Positions 5,599 through 64,000 of a stretch of DNA of 64,000 bases are shown in pieces. Below the pieces are notes generated by a model. The model was not told the DNA's origin and did not search any database. It worked only from the letters and a program-made list of their open reading frames with translations. Location of the stretch: the sequence record MN850609.1. One strand, 5' to 3'. How positions within the stretch are numbered: the first letter of the stretch is position 1; every line of letters starts with the position of its first letter. A program made the translations under genes and the position numbers. This stretch comes from Escherichia phage dhaeg.

Positions 5599-5603
5599 TC
5601 AAA

Positions 5604-5629
5604 GGTCTCACTTCGGTGGGACCTTTTTT
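5604..5629 (+). terminator. rho-independent terminator
   Basis: GGTCTCAC-TTCG-GTGGGACC hairpin plus T6. Confidence 0.75.
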
Positions 5630-5667: not shown

Positions 5668-5695
5668 AGACCTATCAACTAATGAGGAGAATAAA

Positions 5696-5926
5696 ATGAA
5701 AACCATCACCAACCTGAAAGTTATCGATATCGCTAAAGCTTCTAAAGCACTTAAAGTTAAAGCTGAAGATTTTGAAAACGCTACCTTTGCTATTATCGAA
5801 CAAAACGGTAAAGTAACTGGTTTAGAAGTTTATGAAGCTACTAAGTTCCAATCACAGCCTAAAATGGTTATTGGTACTAAATCTGTAGCTATCGAAAAAG
5901 CTTTGGCATTATTCGAAAAAATTTAA
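5696..5926 (+). CDS. hypothetical protein
   Basis: 76 aa; GAGGAG RBS. Confidence 0.5.
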   Translation: MKTITNLKVIDIAKASKALKVKAEDFENATFAIIEQNGKVTGLEVYEATKFQSQPKMVIGTKSVAIEKALALFEKI

Positions 5927-8906: not shown

Positions 8907-9102
8907 AGAAGAAATCAAGGTTTTCCTGTCATATGGAAGACCTCATAAAACCTGTCGTTGGTATCTTGAAGTAGTTTGTAGAGAAACCGGTAGACGAATC
9001 AATTTCAAGTACGTATGCAAGCCTACGTCTAAGCAGATAAGACGGTGTATTAACTGGGCTATCAATAATATCCGCTTCCATAATTATTGGAGCGCAATTT
9101 AG
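8878..9102 (+). CDS. hypothetical basic Cys-containing protein
   Basis: 74-aa ORF overlapping end of upstream gene; stop abuts terminator. Confidence 0.3.
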   Translation: MTTTTLITAKEEIKVFLSYGRPHKTCRWYLEVVCRETGRRINFKYVCKPTSKQIRRCINWAINNIRFHNYWSAI

Positions 9103-9124
9103 GAACCTTCGGGTTCCTTTTTTT
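9102..9124 (+). terminator. rho-independent terminator (GGAACC-TTCG-GGTTCC + T7), copy 1 of repeated cassette
   Basis: perfect hairpin plus T-tract; identical hairpin at about 43401 and 63909. Confidence 0.8.
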
Positions 9125-9172: not shown

Positions 9173-9209
9173 GGACCTATCAAATCTACTGAGTGAAACG
9201 GAGAATATA

Positions 9210-10200: not shown

Positions 10201-10542
10201 ATGTTCGAACAATTTAGTTATGACCTTATAAAAACAGAGTTGAAATACTCTAATGCCATGAAACAGTCTATTGAAGACTATGATAATGAATTTAAACACC
10301 AATTCGCCGAGAAGGTTTACAAAACCGATTGTGAAGAAGGAGACTACAAGAGACTGGCCTTGGCCGCGAAGACCCAAGCCTTAATAAATCTAGACCGTAA
10401 GCAGGTTAAGTTGGCAGGCGACTTCAGAGATGAACTCTGCGCCATCAGGAACGAATACCTTATTCGTATTAAACACCAACGGAAAGAGAACACCCAATCC
10501 GCATGGTTTAGTGGGCAAGCCGGTGAAAAAAGTTTTTATTAG
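10201..10542 (+). CDS. hypothetical protein
   Basis: 113-aa ORF. Confidence 0.45.
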   Translation: MFEQFSYDLIKTELKYSNAMKQSIEDYDNEFKHQFAEKVYKTDCEEGDYKRLALAAKTQALINLDRKQVKLAGDFRDELCAIRNEYLIRIKHQRKENTQSAWFSGQAGEKSFY

Positions 10543-10544
10543 TT

Positions 10545-10573
10545 GTTTACATCTCCAGTAGAAATGATACTAT
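10545..10573 (+). promoter_or_regulatory. early promoter (GTTTAC / TACTAT) with spacer/SD inverted repeat
   Basis: GTTTAC, 17 bp, TACTAT; CTCCAGTAG vs CTAATGGAG. Confidence 0.65.
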
Positions 10574-10599
10574 AGACCTATCAACTAATGGAGGTTATC

Positions 10600-11124
10600 A
10601 TGAACGCTAAAGATATTTTTTCACTGATTAATTTTAACAATGGTAATTTCAAATCTGAAAAACAAAGCAAGTTCTTTAACGACGTTGCTTGTGGTAATGA
10701 GATTACCGTATCTGGAGGAGAGATTTACAAAAGCCGTTGGAACTGGATTGTTATCATCGATTCAGTTGGTATTGTAGAGCTCTATAAAAACACTAACAAA
10801 AAACGTACTCTTCACTGGAGTCGTGAAACCAATCAAGCTTATCAAGCCGAGCGTAATAAACGTTTAATGCCTACTGAATCTGACCTGGCAAACGTTAAAT
10901 CAGATATCGCTTATTTTGATAACTTGATTGCCGAACAACAAGCGGTTATTGATAAGTTTGACGAAATCAAAGCTTGTAAAGAGATTCCTGAATTTATGCG
11001 GGAATCAGTAAACGAACAGTATGCCCTCACTTCAGGTCGTATCGAGCAGTACAAATCACAACGAGCTGAACGCCAAGCTCTGCTTCAGAAATTTGAAGAG
11101 CGTTTAAAGACGGTTCTCGCATAA
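10600..11124 (+). CDS. hypothetical protein with C-terminal coiled-coil tail
   Basis: ATG after GGAGG RBS; heptad-like C-terminus. Confidence 0.5.
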   Translation: MNAKDIFSLINFNNGNFKSEKQSKFFNDVACGNEITVSGGEIYKSRWNWIVIIDSVGIVELYKNTNKKRTLHWSRETNQAYQAERNKRLMPTESDLANVKSDIAYFDNLIAEQQAVIDKFDEIKACKEIPEFMRESVNEQYALTSGRIEQYKSQRAERQALLQKFEERLKTVLA

Positions 11125-13235: not shown

Positions 13236-13263
13236 CCTTTTATCAACTACTGAGGAGAATATC

Positions 13264-17430: not shown

Positions 17431-17459
17431 GTTTACTTCCTCTCCTCACGTGTTATAGT
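17431..17459 (+). promoter_or_regulatory. early promoter (GTTTAC / TATAGT) with 13-bp spacer/SD inverted repeat
   Basis: TCTCCTCACGTGT vs ACACATGAGGAGA. Confidence 0.6.
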
Positions 17460-17488
17460 CTATCCTATCAACACATGAGGAGAACATT

Positions 17489-18552: not shown

Positions 18553-18581
18553 TTTACAAACTCTTGGGACCAGAGTATAAT
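18552..18581 (+). promoter_or_regulatory. early promoter (GTTTAC / TATAAT) with palindrome GGGACCA/TGGTCCC bracketing the -10
   Basis: GTTTAC, 18 bp, TATAAT; perfect 7-bp inverted repeat. Confidence 0.6.
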
Positions 18582-18620
18582 GGTCCCACGGATTATAAAT
18601 TTTAAACTGAGGAAATTATT

Positions 18621-30707: not shown

Positions 30708-30737
30708 CCTTCCTATCAACTACATGAGGAAATTATA

Positions 30738-38973: not shown

Positions 38974-38993
38974 GGAGCTTCGGCTCCTTTTTT
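38974..38993 (+). terminator. rho-independent terminator
   Basis: GGAGC-TTCG-GCTCC plus T6. Confidence 0.75.
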
Positions 38994-39002
38994 GTTTTAA
39001 GG

Positions 39003-39031: not shown

Positions 39032-39055
39032 AGACCTATCAACTTGGAGAACAAA

Positions 39056-39373
39056 ATGAAAACCATCGACTGTAAAGCAGAATATAAAGTGTATTATCAT
39101 GGAAGTTGTAGTGTTGCTAATATTGGTAATATGCTTTGTCCTCCTGAGGAAACAGGAGTTCTGTCTGAAACTGGTCGTAAGAAAAACCTAAATCGTGTGT
39201 TCTTTACTGAGGACATTGGTTTGGCTAAGATTTATGCTGGACGAGCTGCTCGTTCGGTGGGAGGAGAACCTCGTCTTTATCGTGTAATTGCTCCGGTAGA
39301 TGTGGTTTGTTTAAATGATACCAAAGGCGCTACGGTTTATCACGCTGAATGGGCCTTCTGTGAGGAAATCTAA
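39056..39373 (+). CDS. hypothetical protein
   Basis: internal ATG with GGAG RBS in ORF 39044-39373. Confidence 0.45.
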   Translation: MKTIDCKAEYKVYYHGSCSVANIGNMLCPPEETGVLSETGRKKNLNRVFFTEDIGLAKIYAGRAARSVGGEPRLYRVIAPVDVVCLNDTKGATVYHAEWAFCEEI

Positions 39374-39959: not shown

Positions 39960-39989
39960 GTTTACATCGGTCTATGGTAGTGATACTAT
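39960..39989 (+). promoter_or_regulatory. early promoter (GTTTAC / TACTAT)
   Basis: GTTTAC, 18 bp, TACTAT, AGACCTATCAACT. Confidence 0.65.
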
Positions 39990-40017
39990 AGACCTATCAA
40001 CTAATGAGGAGTTAAAA

Positions 40018-43400: not shown

Positions 43401-43422
43401 GGAACCTTCGGGTTCCTTTTTT
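43401..43422 (+). terminator. rho-independent terminator (GGAACC-TTCG-GGTTCC + T6), copy 2
   Basis: identical hairpin to those at 9102 and 63909. Confidence 0.8.
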
Positions 43423-43433
43423 CGTTTTTAATG

Positions 43434-45927: not shown

Positions 45928-45952
45928 CTTTCTATCAACTGAGGAGAATAAT

Positions 45953-46665: not shown

Positions 46666-46705
46666 AGACCTATCAACTAATCGTCCGTAAGATGAGAAAA
46701 ATATC

Positions 46706-47455
46706 ATGCCTACTATTAAAACTAACGATGAATTTGAGTTAAAGGTTTACAACCGCCGCAAACACACCAAAGCTTCTGCTTGTAAACGCGGTAAGGACTT
46801 CAATCTGTCTAGTAAGTATGTTCGTAGACTTCTCGAACAAAAAGTGTGCGCTTATTCGGGCGAGTACTTTGATGAAAATTCAGTTAATGACAAGATTTCA
46901 TTTGAACGTTTTAACAACGATATCGGCTATATTGAGGGTAATGTAATCCCAGTTAAAGTTAAGTATAACAGCTTACGTGCCGATTTGTCCCTTGATGAAC
47001 TGAAACGTGCTCAGACTCGTTTAGCAGTTCGTATTTCAGGTAGTTCTAAAATGCCTAATAGTTTTAAAGTTACTCCTGATAACTATTATAAAATCCGTAA
47101 AATCGTTAAAAATATAAAAGATACCCAAAGAGGTCTTAAAAAACGTGAAAAACGTCTTAAAGACCTTATTAAATCAGGAGCTACTGATAAGACTCCTTCT
47201 GTTATCGCAGTTAAGGCCCGTATCCACGGTTCTAACGCTTCAATCGGTACTATGGAAAAAGGTCTTAAATCTTTAATTGGTGGGCCTGATTGGCGTGTCA
47301 AGTTTAAATTGTCTGAAGCAGAAACGCGTTACGATATGTATGATAAAATTATTCAAGGTCTGGAGCGTTTAGAACACCTTTCTTTTATTGACAAATTGAA
47401 GTTGAAAAAAGGTCTTCCATTGAATGCTTCAATTTTTTCACTGATTAGAGGTTAA
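46706..47455 (+). CDS. Srd-like protein (by position between mod genes and dda)
   Basis: 249 aa; basic C-terminal half; synteny and size match T4 srd as recalled. Confidence 0.35.
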   Translation: MPTIKTNDEFELKVYNRRKHTKASACKRGKDFNLSSKYVRRLLEQKVCAYSGEYFDENSVNDKISFERFNNDIGYIEGNVIPVKVKYNSLRADLSLDELKRAQTRLAVRISGSSKMPNSFKVTPDNYYKIRKIVKNIKDTQRGLKKREKRLKDLIKSGATDKTPSVIAVKARIHGSNASIGTMEKGLKSLIGGPDWRVKFKLSEAETRYDMYDKIIQGLERLEHLSFIDKLKLKKGLPLNASIFSLIRG

Positions 47456-50006: not shown

Positions 50007-50035
50007 GTTTACTTCTCCTCATGACATGATACTAT
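50007..50035 (+). promoter_or_regulatory. early promoter (GTTTAC / TACTAT) with perfect spacer/SD inverted repeat CTCCTCATG/CATGAGGAG
   Basis: GTTTAC, 17 bp, TACTAT; 9-bp inverted repeat. Confidence 0.65.
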
Positions 50036-50061
50036 AACCCTATCAACATGAGGAGAACAAA

Positions 50062-50565
50062 ATGAAAATTTATCGAGTCGAGTCATCGTTCAGTATCTTA
50101 GATAATAGTGATGCTATCGCAATTACTCGCCAGCAATGCCGCCAATTAACACCTTATAGAGGCTCATTTGATGAATGGAGCGAAGGCTGGTTATTGGAAG
50201 TAGGTTTTGACAGGCCTAATTTTAGACACCATCATACTAATAATAAAAGCATCCCACTACCAAGTCAAGATGAATTGTTGGTTAAAAATTCTAATGCAGT
50301 AATTAAAACCAAATTCGAACATGAAGATTATAAAGGTGTAGATAACTATATCCCTGGTTGGTTTGTTAACCTCTACCATTTTGCTTTTGCCAGCGAGTAT
50401 GATATGATGCGCTGGTTCACTCGTGAAGAGCGTGCGGAATTATCTTCTAAAGGATTCTACCTTGCTGTTTACGAAATCCCTGAAGATGAGGTTGTCATTG
50501 GTGACCGCCAAGTAATGTTCCGCAAATCCCATGCTGAACTCGTAGATTTTATTGAAATGAGATAA
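50062..50565 (+). CDS. hypothetical protein
   Basis: 167-aa ORF. Confidence 0.5.
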   Translation: MKIYRVESSFSILDNSDAIAITRQQCRQLTPYRGSFDEWSEGWLLEVGFDRPNFRHHHTNNKSIPLPSQDELLVKNSNAVIKTKFEHEDYKGVDNYIPGWFVNLYHFAFASEYDMMRWFTREERAELSSKGFYLAVYEIPEDEVVIGDRQVMFRKSHAELVDFIEMR

Positions 50566-51121: not shown

Positions 51122-51150
51122 GTTTACTTTATCGAGAGCCATGTTATAAT
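51122..51150 (+). promoter_or_regulatory. early promoter (GTTTAC / TATAAT) with palindrome GAGAGCCAT/ATGGCTCTC bracketing the -10
   Basis: GTTTAC, 17 bp, TATAAT; perfect 9-bp inverted repeat. Confidence 0.6.
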
Positions 51151-51192
51151 GGCTCTCATGGATTATAAACCTTTAACCAAGAGAGAAAAATT

Positions 51193-51772: not shown

Positions 51773-51801
51773 TATACAATACGGTAGGGTAGTGATACTA
51801 T
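51773..51801 (+). promoter_or_regulatory. early-type promoter with degenerate -35 and conserved TGATACTAT -10 block
   Basis: GTGATACTATTACCCTATCAAC. Confidence 0.35.
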
Positions 51802-51831
51802 TACCCTATCAACAAATGAGAGGAAAATAAA

Positions 51832-54852: not shown

Positions 54853-55005
54853 ATGAGAAAGTACTGGATAACGCTAGCCACCGGTGAATTTGGATACCTC
54901 TGGGCCGAGAAGAGACCTTTGTTCGCAGAGTATGTGACCATTATGGTAGAAACCTGGGAAGGCGAATTTTATCAAGTTCGAGGTCAAGTCTACAAAATTG
55001 AATAA
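54853..55005 (+). CDS. hypothetical small protein (unlisted ORF)
   Basis: 50 codons read by hand; AGGAGA RBS. Confidence 0.35.
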   Translation: MRKYWITLATGEFGYLWAEKRPLFAEYVTIMVETWEGEFYQVRGQVYKIE

Positions 55006-55009
55006 TTAA

Positions 55010-55027
55010 GGGCCTACGGGCCCTTTT
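55010..55027 (+). terminator. terminator-like hairpin (GGGCC-TACG-GGCCC + T4)
   Basis: GC-rich stem plus short T-tract. Confidence 0.55.
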
Positions 55028-55031
55028 CGGG

Positions 55032-59865: not shown

Positions 59866-59893
59866 CTTCCTATCAACTAATGAGGAGAACAAA

Positions 59894-60160
59894 ATGGATA
59901 TCAAATTATATTACGCTAAACACAAAGTTACGGGTATGGTTGTTGCCGCTATGTATGATGCATCAGGTGAAGGTGATAATGTTACTACAGAGTTATCTCT
60001 TTCTGAATGTAAATTTCTTCGCCCGTTGATTGCATCAAAGGAAGATTTAAAAAAGCTTATTGATGGCAAGCTGGATAATGTTGATGGTATAGATATTCTT
60101 TATGACCTCCGCACTGCATTGCACCGTGGTTTGATTGAGATAAAAGAGGTTGTGTTTTGA
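59894..60160 (+). CDS. hypothetical protein
   Basis: ATG after promoter and GAGGAG RBS in ORF 59834-60160. Confidence 0.45.
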   Translation: MDIKLYYAKHKVTGMVVAAMYDASGEGDNVTTELSLSECKFLRPLIASKEDLKKLIDGKLDNVDGIDILYDLRTALHRGLIEIKEVVF

Positions 60161-60558: not shown

Positions 60559-60587
60559 GTTTACATCTCCATTAGACATGATATTAT
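60559..60587 (+). promoter_or_regulatory. early promoter (GTTTAC / TATTAT) with perfect spacer/SD inverted repeat CTCCATTAG/CTAATGGAG
   Basis: GTTTAC, 17 bp, TATTAT, AGACCTATCAACT. Confidence 0.65.
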
Positions 60588-60613
60588 AGACCTATCAACT
60601 AATGGAGATGATT

Positions 60614-61339: not shown

Positions 61340-61367
61340 TTTACAACCTCGAGAATCATGTTATAAT
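61339..61367 (+). promoter_or_regulatory. early promoter (GTTTAC / TATAAT) with inverted repeat CGAGAATCAT/ATGGTTCTCG bracketing the -10
   Basis: GTTTAC, 17 bp, TATAAT; 10-bp repeat with one G-U-compatible mismatch. Confidence 0.6.
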
Positions 61368-61416
61368 GGTTCTCGTTGACTGGATAACAAAACATTAATC
61401 TACTGAGGAAATTGAT

Positions 61417-63908: not shown

Positions 63909-63931
63909 GGAACCTTCGGGTTCCTTTTTTT
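63909..63931 (+). terminator. rho-independent terminator (GGAACC-TTCG-GGTTCC + T7), copy 3
   Basis: identical to hairpins at 9102 and 43401. Confidence 0.8.
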
Positions 63932-63950
63932 GGGTTTAGTGCAAAAAAGT

Positions 63951-63979: not shown

Positions 63980-64000
63980 AGACCTATCAAAACAACAGAG

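Follow-up and report, generated by a model that had tools for sequence, protein, structure and literature searches.

The systems that come closest to the element considered here are the early (Pe) promoters of bacteriophage T4 and the early promoter–stem-loop (PeSL) cassettes. An A-rich region in the -40s is typical of T4-type early promoters (PMC1524935, PMC2988021), and alignments of the T4 early promoters show "additional regions of consensus" together with the "uber" promoters that combine UP, -35, TGn and -10 elements (PMC2988021). The part downstream of the -10 hexamer has been recorded in this literature only under these "additional regions of consensus" (PMC2988021) and as a preference for C at positions -3 to -1, reported for the phages RB69, RB49 and 44RR (Nolan et al. 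2006, PMC1524935). The PeSL cassettes, in those portions of the two reports that describe them for the phage pairs RB49/phi1, PST/T4 and nt-1/KVP40, consist of an A/T-rich region, a strong sigma70 promoter, a stem-loop, a Shine-Dalgarno sequence (SD) and an ATG (PMC2839356, PMC4122927). In the same portions, the stem-loop is placed in the interval separating the -35 from the -10 box, overlapping either box, upstream or just downstream, and is viewed as a terminator or attenuator and as a recombination site (PMC2839356, PMC4122927). Here we examine a conserved block that directly follows the -10 hexamer of many early promoters in a stretch of 64,000 nucleotides (nt) from Escherichia phage dhaeg (sequence record MN850609.1; the whole of this stretch is referred to as the window), with the copy at positions 10574–10587 as the focal site. 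The block has a defined position and is anchored at a fixed distance to the -10 hexamer, it is restricted to early promoters, it is conserved across genera of the Straboviridae and it has a two-part structure. The cassette that carries it is the extended consensus of the T4 Pe promoters and is also a cassette of the PeSL type. The explanation that we favor, tentatively and at somewhat less than an even chance, is that the block represents the discriminator and initial-transcribed part of an immediate-early sigma70 cassette and that it acts at the DNA level with the host RNA polymerase.

The early promoters of the window share with the T4 Pe promoters the GTTTAC element, a spacer of 17–18 nt, the TGn motif, a TAnnnT hexamer and then the block, and the context of the regB and nrdC.8 genes is likewise shared. 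They differ in positions -6 to -2, which read mostly ACAAC in T4 and AGACC here, and in the share of early promoters that bear the block, which is smaller in T4 (11/38) than in the window (16/23) or genome-wide in Dhakavirus (18/36). With the PeSL cassettes, as set out in the portions of the reports cited above, the window has in common a strong promoter with an adjacent or overlapping stem, an SD and an ATG, as well as six upstream terminator hairpins and possible signs of exchange, and its short-range stems (described below) match the PeSL arrangement in which the stem-loop overlaps the -10 box. However, neither pairing between spacer and SD region over a long range nor the TATCAAC block is mentioned in those portions of the PeSL descriptions, and the PeSL cassettes of RB49 have TTGACA and TATAAT boxes and stems made of G-runs and C-runs.

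The approximately 3 kb surrounding the focal site share 97.9% identity with the Escherichia phages dhabil and CLB_P2, and the value for JS98 and JS10 is 96%; on the basis of sequence, the source phage is a JS98-like member of the genus Dhakavirus, within the T4-like Straboviridae. Every gene of this region is located on the + strand. The focal promoter is intergenic and points to an early gene (10600–11124, + strand) that is the ortholog of T4 nrdC.8, with 69% amino acid identity by tblastn and with the annotation of JS98 and JS10 at the match, and in T4, too, nrdC.8 is preceded by a Pe-type promoter of its own at the equivalent place. All parts of the promoter lie on the + strand. As read from the sequence, it begins with an A/T-rich, UP-like region (GGTGAAAAAAGTTTTTATTAGTT, 10522–10544), which is followed by a T4-type early -35 element (GTTTAC, 10545–10550; the same hexamer as in 38 T4 early promoter candidates), a spacer of 17 nt, and the extended -10 motif TGA with the hexamer TACTAT (10565–10573). 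With this spacer length, the TGn motif and a hexamer of TAnnnT form, it is a T4-type early sigma70 promoter, and the focal promoter and 22 other promoters of the window are alike in the GTTTAC element and the A/T-rich upstream region. From 10568 to 10599 the sequence reads TACTAT AGACCTATCAACTA ATGGAGGTTATC, with the ATG then at 10600. The block AGACCTATCAACTA itself (10574–10587) comprises the discriminator AGACCT (-6 to -1) and the first eight bases predicted to be transcribed.

To be independent of the block, early promoters were defined by the pattern GTTTAC-N17/18-TAnnnT upstream of an SD and an ATG, and by this definition the window contains 23 of them, all on the + strand. A generic scan of the window for sigma70 promoters and terminators gave 62 promoter-like matches versus 58.8 in shuffled sequences, that is, no excess; for these promoters, the T4-specific pattern alone is informative. 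The core TATCA(A) is present at the predicted start of 16 of the 23 promoters, in exact register in 14 and shifted by one base in two, whereas the exact sequence AGACCTATCAACT is found at seven. The original prediction that at least 15 promoters share the block is thus borne out for the core but not for the full 13-mer, and the positions that it had given (1533, 5668, 10574, 39032, 39990, 46666, 60588 and 63980, with variants at 9173, 30708, 50036 and 59866) all proved to be correct. The motif is strongly enriched: the 19-mer TAYTATWGACCTATCAACT, with three or fewer mismatches, occurs 12 times in the window, exclusively on the + strand, versus 0.06 occurrences expected. Similarly, the 8-mer CTATCAAC has 14 copies on the + strand versus two on the - strand, and rather than being equally common in coding regions, 13 of the 14 sense copies are located at promoters and a single one (35954) is in a coding region.

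When the promoters that carry the block are compared in pairs, the mean identity of their spacers is 0.37, that of the TGn/-10 part 0.84, that of the block 0.69 and that of the next 14 nt of the leader 0.42. Because the identity of the spacers is just 0.37, the block is conserved in its own right, and recent duplication of whole cassettes is ruled out as the source of this conservation. Over positions -6 to +8 the information content amounts to about 8.7 bits for the whole Dhakavirus genome, which is comparable to that of the -10 hexamer, and the most strongly conserved positions are C-3, C-2 and T-1, all of them upstream of the predicted start. The TACTAT form of the hexamer is linked to the block, being present in 15/18 block promoters versus 2/18 others in Dhakavirus and in 10/11 versus 5/27 in T4. 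In each copy the block directly adjoins the -10 hexamer, whereas its distance to the SD ranges from 1 to about 25 nt; this combination of fixed anchoring on one side and variable distance on the other argues against a function that is linked to the SD.

The position of the transcription start was predicted by a 7-nt rule, according to which it is the seventh base past the -10 hexamer. At the focal site this base would be A10580, the A of cT-A-TCAAC, and the block then comprises AGACCT (-6 to -1) and AUCAACUA (+1 to +8; the RNA beginning +1 AUCAACU). In our own scan of T4, the corresponding base of the annotated promoter Pe133295 is also an A and the seventh after the -10 hexamer, if the name of this promoter is assumed to give its start coordinate, and in approximately 55 middle promoters of T4 whose starts were mapped experimentally (Table 1, PMC2988021) the -10 hexamer is mostly at -12 to -7. 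The placement agrees with both, and by this rule the original prediction was right in taking the block for the start site with the first transcribed bases and, as a description of its position (-6 to about +8), in calling it a discriminator or initial-transcribed element.

The block is not limited to the source phage. A 36-nt query around it matched 1040 phage records, with 15–18 matching places per genome in Dhakavirus, about 9 in Mosigvirus and 2–3 in Tequatrovirus, and an equivalent pattern was seen in whole-genome scans of the Dhakavirus CLBP2 and of one Mosigvirus. In T4, the scan gave six promoters with TACTAT ACAACTATCAACTAC and three with TACTAT TACCCTATCAA, and the T4 denV promoter (GTTTAC atctcctgtaggtatga TACTAT agacctatcaactacaggag) is nearly identical to the window cassette, with the hairpin arms (see below) included. 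The pattern TAyTAT-nnnCn-TATCAR was present at single promoters in Karamvirus CC31, Gelderlandvirus Melville, Winklervirus, Jiaodavirus and the Acinetobacter Lazarusvirus Berthold. In the IMG/VR database, the composite pattern GTTTAC-N17/18-TAnTAT-N4-CTATCAAC was found in 109 stretches, mostly on contigs of 116–173 kb and otherwise on shorter fragments, with several contigs giving more than one stretch. The core (C)TATCAA(C) is universal among the genera compared, and the -6 to -2 part, for which the T4 and Dhakavirus forms are given above, reads AGACC or AGTCC in Mosigvirus. The predominance of ACAAC in T4 and of AGACC in Dhakavirus is also seen when orthologous promoters are compared. That this part is genus-specific and common to paralogs indicates concerted evolution among the promoter cassettes. 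In contrast to the early promoters, TATCAA is found at the start in 0 of about 55 T4 middle promoters, and hence the block marks the early class and is not needed by the sigma70 polymerase at every start. On these comparisons, the block is a family-wide extension of the T4-type early promoter and not special to the source phage. In the literature collection covered by a full-text search for the sequence, no paper was found that gives the TATCAAC motif explicitly.

When GTTTAC was replaced by TTGACA, scanning of IMG/VR gave single scattered matches, about the number estimated from the specificity of the pattern and therefore uninformative, with the exception of one contig (L186; IMGVR_UViG_3300013110_000302). 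This unclassified phage contig of 16.9 kb, without a DNA relative in the phage collection, contains between 493 and 4540 five TTGACA-N17-TATAAT cassettes that are followed by nnnCTATCA...AGGA...ATG; a clear hairpin with a T run precedes two of the five cassettes, and their spacers form an inverted repeat around the -10 hexamer. Since CTATCA is here found at consensus sigma70 promoters, the start-site motif is not limited to T4-like phages, and the sequences of this contig hint at a property at the level of the polymerase rather than at a T4-specific factor.

If the block is read as a DNA-level module for the start site and the initial transcript of these very strong immediate-early sigma70 promoters, the bases T-1 and A+1 would determine where transcription begins. 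No G is present among the first ten bases of the transcript (AUCAACUAAU), so that no pyrimidine-G pause motif is available, and as the UP, -35, TGn and -10 elements are near-optimal, these promoters should be limited by promoter escape; the G-free start may let the polymerase leave a promoter to which it binds very tightly. In work with random libraries, escape differed by as much as about three orders of magnitude with the initial transcribed sequence from +2 to +10, and a TG near +5/+6 slowed it (PMC5961368). Studies of T5 N25 and of libraries with random initial transcribed sequences (PMC5961368, PMC12464699) resemble the present case in that the bases from +1 to +10 determine escape at tight-binding promoters; however, these studies found rules of composition and pausing and no fixed motif. 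Additionally, each early mRNA would gain a common, short and unstructured 5' end just before the SD, the block would be placed at the top of an RNA hairpin that spans the promoter, and it may supply about 25 identical bases across which paralogous cassettes exchange. The location of the conservation peak at -3 to -1, upstream of +1, fits recognition of DNA better than it fits a leader tag.

A number of points weigh against this reading. The block is missing at 7/23 early promoters of the window and at over half of those in T4, which indicates that it is not required for early promoter activity, and the middle promoters use an identical sigma70 -10 hexamer without the block, so that there is no general requirement of the polymerase for it. 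The -6 to -2 part differs between phages of one host, and RNA polymerase thus probably does not read this half. In RNA, the spacer pairs with parts of the block, and some of the constraint could therefore operate at the RNA level. The proposed fast escape is inferred from the absence of known pause motifs, and the start at A10580 is a prediction from the 7-nt rule. As far as the block alone is concerned, the present results add more instances of a known early-promoter cassette of the T4 family, and they should be of use in annotating the early promoters and starts of Dhakavirus phages. The invariant TATCAA provides a small and defined target for mutagenesis, the outcome of which would have a bearing on how phage promoters out-compete those of the host and possibly on early shut-off.

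Several other known elements were compared with the block by eye and rejected. For the core of the integration host factor site (WATCAANNNNTTR), the block gives TATCAA-CTAA-TGA, in which the TTR part does not match, and at +1 such a site would cause repression. The DnaA box (TTATNCACA) has three mismatches, TATCAA is without the final T that is essential for the sigma70-dependent pause element, and the consensus of promoters for capping with nicotinamide adenine dinucleotide does not fit at -3 to +4. The 3' end of 16S rRNA pairs downstream of the SD and not upstream of it.

A further feature, which the original prediction did not include, concerns the spacer. Folding of the sequences from the -35 element to the ATG predicted long hairpins at many of the window promoters, the 5' arm of which is the spacer between the -35 and -10 elements. 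In one class, which we will refer to as long-range, the leader and its SD supply the 3' arm, and the -10 hexamer and the block are in the loop; hairpins of this class are located at 1510–1554, 10551–10595, 17441–17483, 50013–50057 and 60565–60609 (all on the + strand). Their arms are ATCTCCTGTAG/CTACAGGAGAT at the promoter at 1504, ATCTCCATTAG/CTAATGGAGAT at that at 60559 and TTCTCCTCATG/CATGAGGAGAA at that at 50007, and the promoter at 17431 also forms such a pair. At the focal site the 5' arm ATCTCCAGTAG (10551–10561, + strand) contains the anti-SD sequence CTCC, and the 3' arm CTAATGGAGGT (10585–10595, + strand) includes the SD GGAGG at 10590–10594; both arms are indicated by the fold and by covariation in the alignment described below, and the single mismatch of the focal hairpin is not present in the CLBP2 ortholog, which pairs perfectly. 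The predicted +1 is between these two arms and thus inside the hairpin. In the second, short-range class, the spacer pairs instead with the 3' half of the -10 hexamer and the discriminator, the -10 hexamer is in or beside the loop, and no T run follows. Examples are the promoters at 39960 (GGTCTATGGTAG/TACTATAGACC), 51772, 51122, 18552 and 61339, and short-range stems are located at 18565–18588, 39969–39994, 51134–51157, 51783–51810 and about 61350–61373. In this class the -6 to -2 part covaries with the spacer.

The pairing of a promoter's own spacer with its own downstream region is stronger than pairing in chimeric combinations, both in the window (p<5e-5) and in Dhakavirus, T4 and Mosigvirus (about -11.8 versus -7.3 to -8.1 kcal/mol, p<5e-5), and it also exceeds that of chimeras in 86 IMG/VR promoters with distinct spacers. 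Further evidence was provided by an alignment of 24 promoters that were chosen solely by a 17-nt spacer and by GGAG at downstream positions 17–20. In this set, CTCC is present at spacer positions 3–6 in 22/24 promoters, and 94.5% of the cells of the outer helix are paired, versus 31–52% when the partner was slid. Changes on both sides were observed in 28 cells versus 9 +/- 2.2 in shuffles, none of 500 of which reached 28, figures that have to be read with the relatedness of the rows and the derivation of the structure from the same sequences in mind. At regB, stems between spacer and SD are found in T4, Dhakavirus and Mosigvirus alike, although they are made from different sequences, such stems are also present at the nrdC.8 promoters of T4 and Dhakavirus, and the cef promoters differ by a compensatory pair (AGGGCTAT/ATAGCCCT versus AGGGTTAT/ATAACCCT in CC31 and Melville). 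Folding favors the sense over the antisense strand (73 versus 38 promoters, p 5.5e-5), and G:U pairs outnumber A:C pairs by 12 to 4; this bias and this excess both point to RNA that is produced by read-through from upstream. Within the window, the z-score of the fold is -2.8 or lower at 8/21 promoters, and the predicted probability that the SD is unpaired in read-through RNA is at most 0.14 at 9/22 promoters, the focal one included, where it is predicted to fall from 0.21 in the promoter's own transcript to 0.00. When tested alone, the focal hairpin was not significant (z -1.13), and its support comes from the family only.

These observations are the basis of the strongest of the alternative explanations, according to which the cassette is an RNA switch in read-through transcripts and the block, as the apex of the hairpin, is conserved to fit the fold, e.g., by pairing of TATCA with TGATA of the extended -10 motif. 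RNA started at the promoter, which is without the 5' arm, would have a free SD and would undergo translation followed by RegB cleavage, whereas read-through RNA would be untranslated and resistant to RegB. A precedent for this exists in the T4 genes e, soc, 49 and I-TevI (PMC3014915), where the SD is likewise in the 3' arm of a hairpin, an internal promoter is present, and its own transcript without the 5' arm is translatable, in contrast to RNA initiated upstream. There, however, the internal promoter is a late one (TATAAATA, gp55) and the logic is "late only," whereas here an early sigma70 promoter takes this place, with its spacer as the 5' arm; the window hairpins are predicted by these models to work in the manner of the e/soc/49/I-TevI type without being members of it. 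As an explanation of the block, we consider the switch unlikely, since it accounts for the arms but not for the block, whose invariant TATCAA is mostly in the loop. The inner helix TGATA:TATCA shows no compensatory change in the alignment and never varies on both sides, and a purine bias at the free position -13 is weak and not significant (p 0.06), for which reasons this helix was rejected as the cause of the conservation. About 40% of the promoters are without a strong stem, and as the SD is not involved in stems of the short-range class, no single translational role applies to all cases. RNA structure is on this account a companion feature of the TATCAA core and not its explanation.

The systematic pairing of spacer and SD is the part of these results that is most worth following. 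On the folding model, read-through RNA would hide the SD and RNA started at the promoter would not, which suggests for the immediate-early genes, regB included, a design in which only those messages are translated that were initiated at the promoter itself. Such pairing would also protect GGAG sites that lie inside long transcripts against RegB. If this is true, the principle known from a few late genes (e, soc, 49 and I-TevI) would hold for a large share of the early genes as well.

It is less probable again, and in our view distinctly so, that the transcribed half AUCAACUA serves as a 5' leader tag that marks early mRNAs for loading of the ribosome or S1, for targeting by RegB/S1, or for decay that depends on the 5' end. 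All block promoters would give a common RNA 5' end 10–35 nt before the start codon, the leader of the promoter's own transcript is predicted to be unstructured, and a RegB homolog is encoded in the window. The consensus for RegB is GGAGRAYARAA, and structure blocks the enzyme (PMC3014915). This sequence has five matches in the window, four of them at early leaders, versus 0.33 expected; free SDs in these leaders would be targets of RegB, and paired SDs of read-through RNA would be protected. Nevertheless, the best conserved positions, -3 to -1, are not part of the RNA and are not explained by a pure tag, the published RegB/S1 determinant is 3' of the GGAG and not 5' of it (PMC3014915), the distance between the block and the SD is variable, and a scan of the whole window against Rfam gave no family match. 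In the four early leaders concerned, the stretch from the SD to the ATG corresponds exactly to the RegB/S1 consensus (5686–5696, 39046–39056, 50052–50062 and 59884–59894).

Another explanation, which we regard as quite improbable, is that the block does little by itself and owes its uniformity to frequent recombination or gene conversion among cassettes, as in PeSL-mediated shuffling. It is consistent with a -6 to -2 variant that is specific for the genus and common to paralogs, with T4 cassettes that are identical over more than 60 nt, with one chimeric promoter (L116, see below), and with the mapping of PeSL crossovers between the -10 box and the ATG (PMC2839356). However, the adjoining spacers have diverged like random sequence (0.37), so that conversion tracts would need to stop exactly at the block, and homogenization within a genome cannot yield a TATCAA core that is alike across subfamilies and hosts. 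A similarly small probability is assigned to a composite of other explanations, in which TATCAAC is a handle for a phage factor that recognizes the early class, either as a shut-off operator or as an mRNA 5' tag, with the hairpins tying translation to the gene's own promoter. Least probable of all is an operator at which a phage or host DNA-binding factor recognizes TATCAAC at early starts, with a candidate role in the shut-off of early promoters minutes after infection, the mechanism of which is stated to be unknown (PMC2988021, PMC3014915): although the block is confined to early promoters, is not found in middle promoters and is invariant across genera in which other parts of the promoter drift, it has neither dyad symmetry nor a candidate protein, 30–70% of the early promoters are without it while shut-off is reported for the whole class, and CTATCA after the consensus sigma70 promoters of L186 fits a property of the polymerase better than a T4-specific factor.

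The other copies of the block in the window, all of them on the + strand, are found in various settings. A copy AGACCTATCAACTA at 1533–1546 belongs to the promoter of the regB homolog (1561–2019, + strand; 59% identity to T4 RegB), and this promoter itself carries a spacer:SD hairpin, with arms at 1510–1520 and 1544–1554 and a fold z-score of -3.26. The copy at 60588–60601 (arms 60565–60575 and 60599–60609, the latter with the SD; z -5.22) and the variant AACCCTATCAACAT at 50036–50049 (arms 50013–50023 and 50047–50057, the SD again in the latter; z -6.98) are similarly associated with long-range hairpins, and the variant CTATCCTATCAACA at 17460–17473, in register +1, is within a strong hairpin that covers the SD (17441–17483, z -5.73). 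In the short-range class, the spacer GGTCTATGGTAG upstream of the copy at 39990–40003 pairs with the -10 hexamer and AGACC (39969–39994, z -2.87), and at the variant TACCCTATCAACAA (51802–51815) the spacer GGTAGGGTAGT pairs with ACTATTACCCTATC (51783–51810, z -3.14). The copies at 5668–5681 and 39032–39045 (AGACCTATCAACTT) combine an upstream terminator with a RegB-consensus leader, the variant GGACCTATCAAATC at 9173–9186 has an upstream terminator, and the variant CTTCCTATCAACTA at 59866–59879 has a RegB-consensus leader. The copy at 46666–46679 is followed by a long leader of 34 nt, with the ATG at 46706. The remaining variants are CCTTTTATCAACTA at 13236–13249, which follows a TATAAT hexamer, CCTTCCTATCAACT at 30708–30721, in register +1, CTTTCTATCAACTG at 45928–45941, and AGACCTATCAAAAC at 63980–63993, at the edge of the window.

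GC-rich hairpins with T runs are located directly upstream of six early promoters (5601–5626, 9101–9118, about 38975–38998, about 43405–43430, about 55005–55028 and about 63925–63945), which is the terminator-then-promoter layout of the PeSL cassettes. The stems inside the promoters are without T runs, and only these upstream hairpins resemble intrinsic terminators. The possible signs of exchange between cassettes consist of one chimeric promoter and one half-converted leader of the window. In the IMG/VR Dhakavirus contig L116 (about 1–1755), when compared with 10545–10600 and 60559–60610 of the window, the nrdC.8 promoter has a spacer of the type found at the promoter at 60559 in flanks of the nrdC.8 type, and the nrdC.8 leader of the window has the 60559-type sequence CTAATGGAG where CLBP2 has CTACTGGAG. 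Judged by their sequences, both look like the outcome of short-patch exchange between paralogous promoters, with an apparent crossover in the -10 hexamer or the block. In T4, the two members of each of the early promoter pairs 55384/146875 and 123093/136336 agree in every base of a stretch of more than 60 nt that takes in the spacer and the upstream region, which indicates that whole cassettes were recently copied within this genome.

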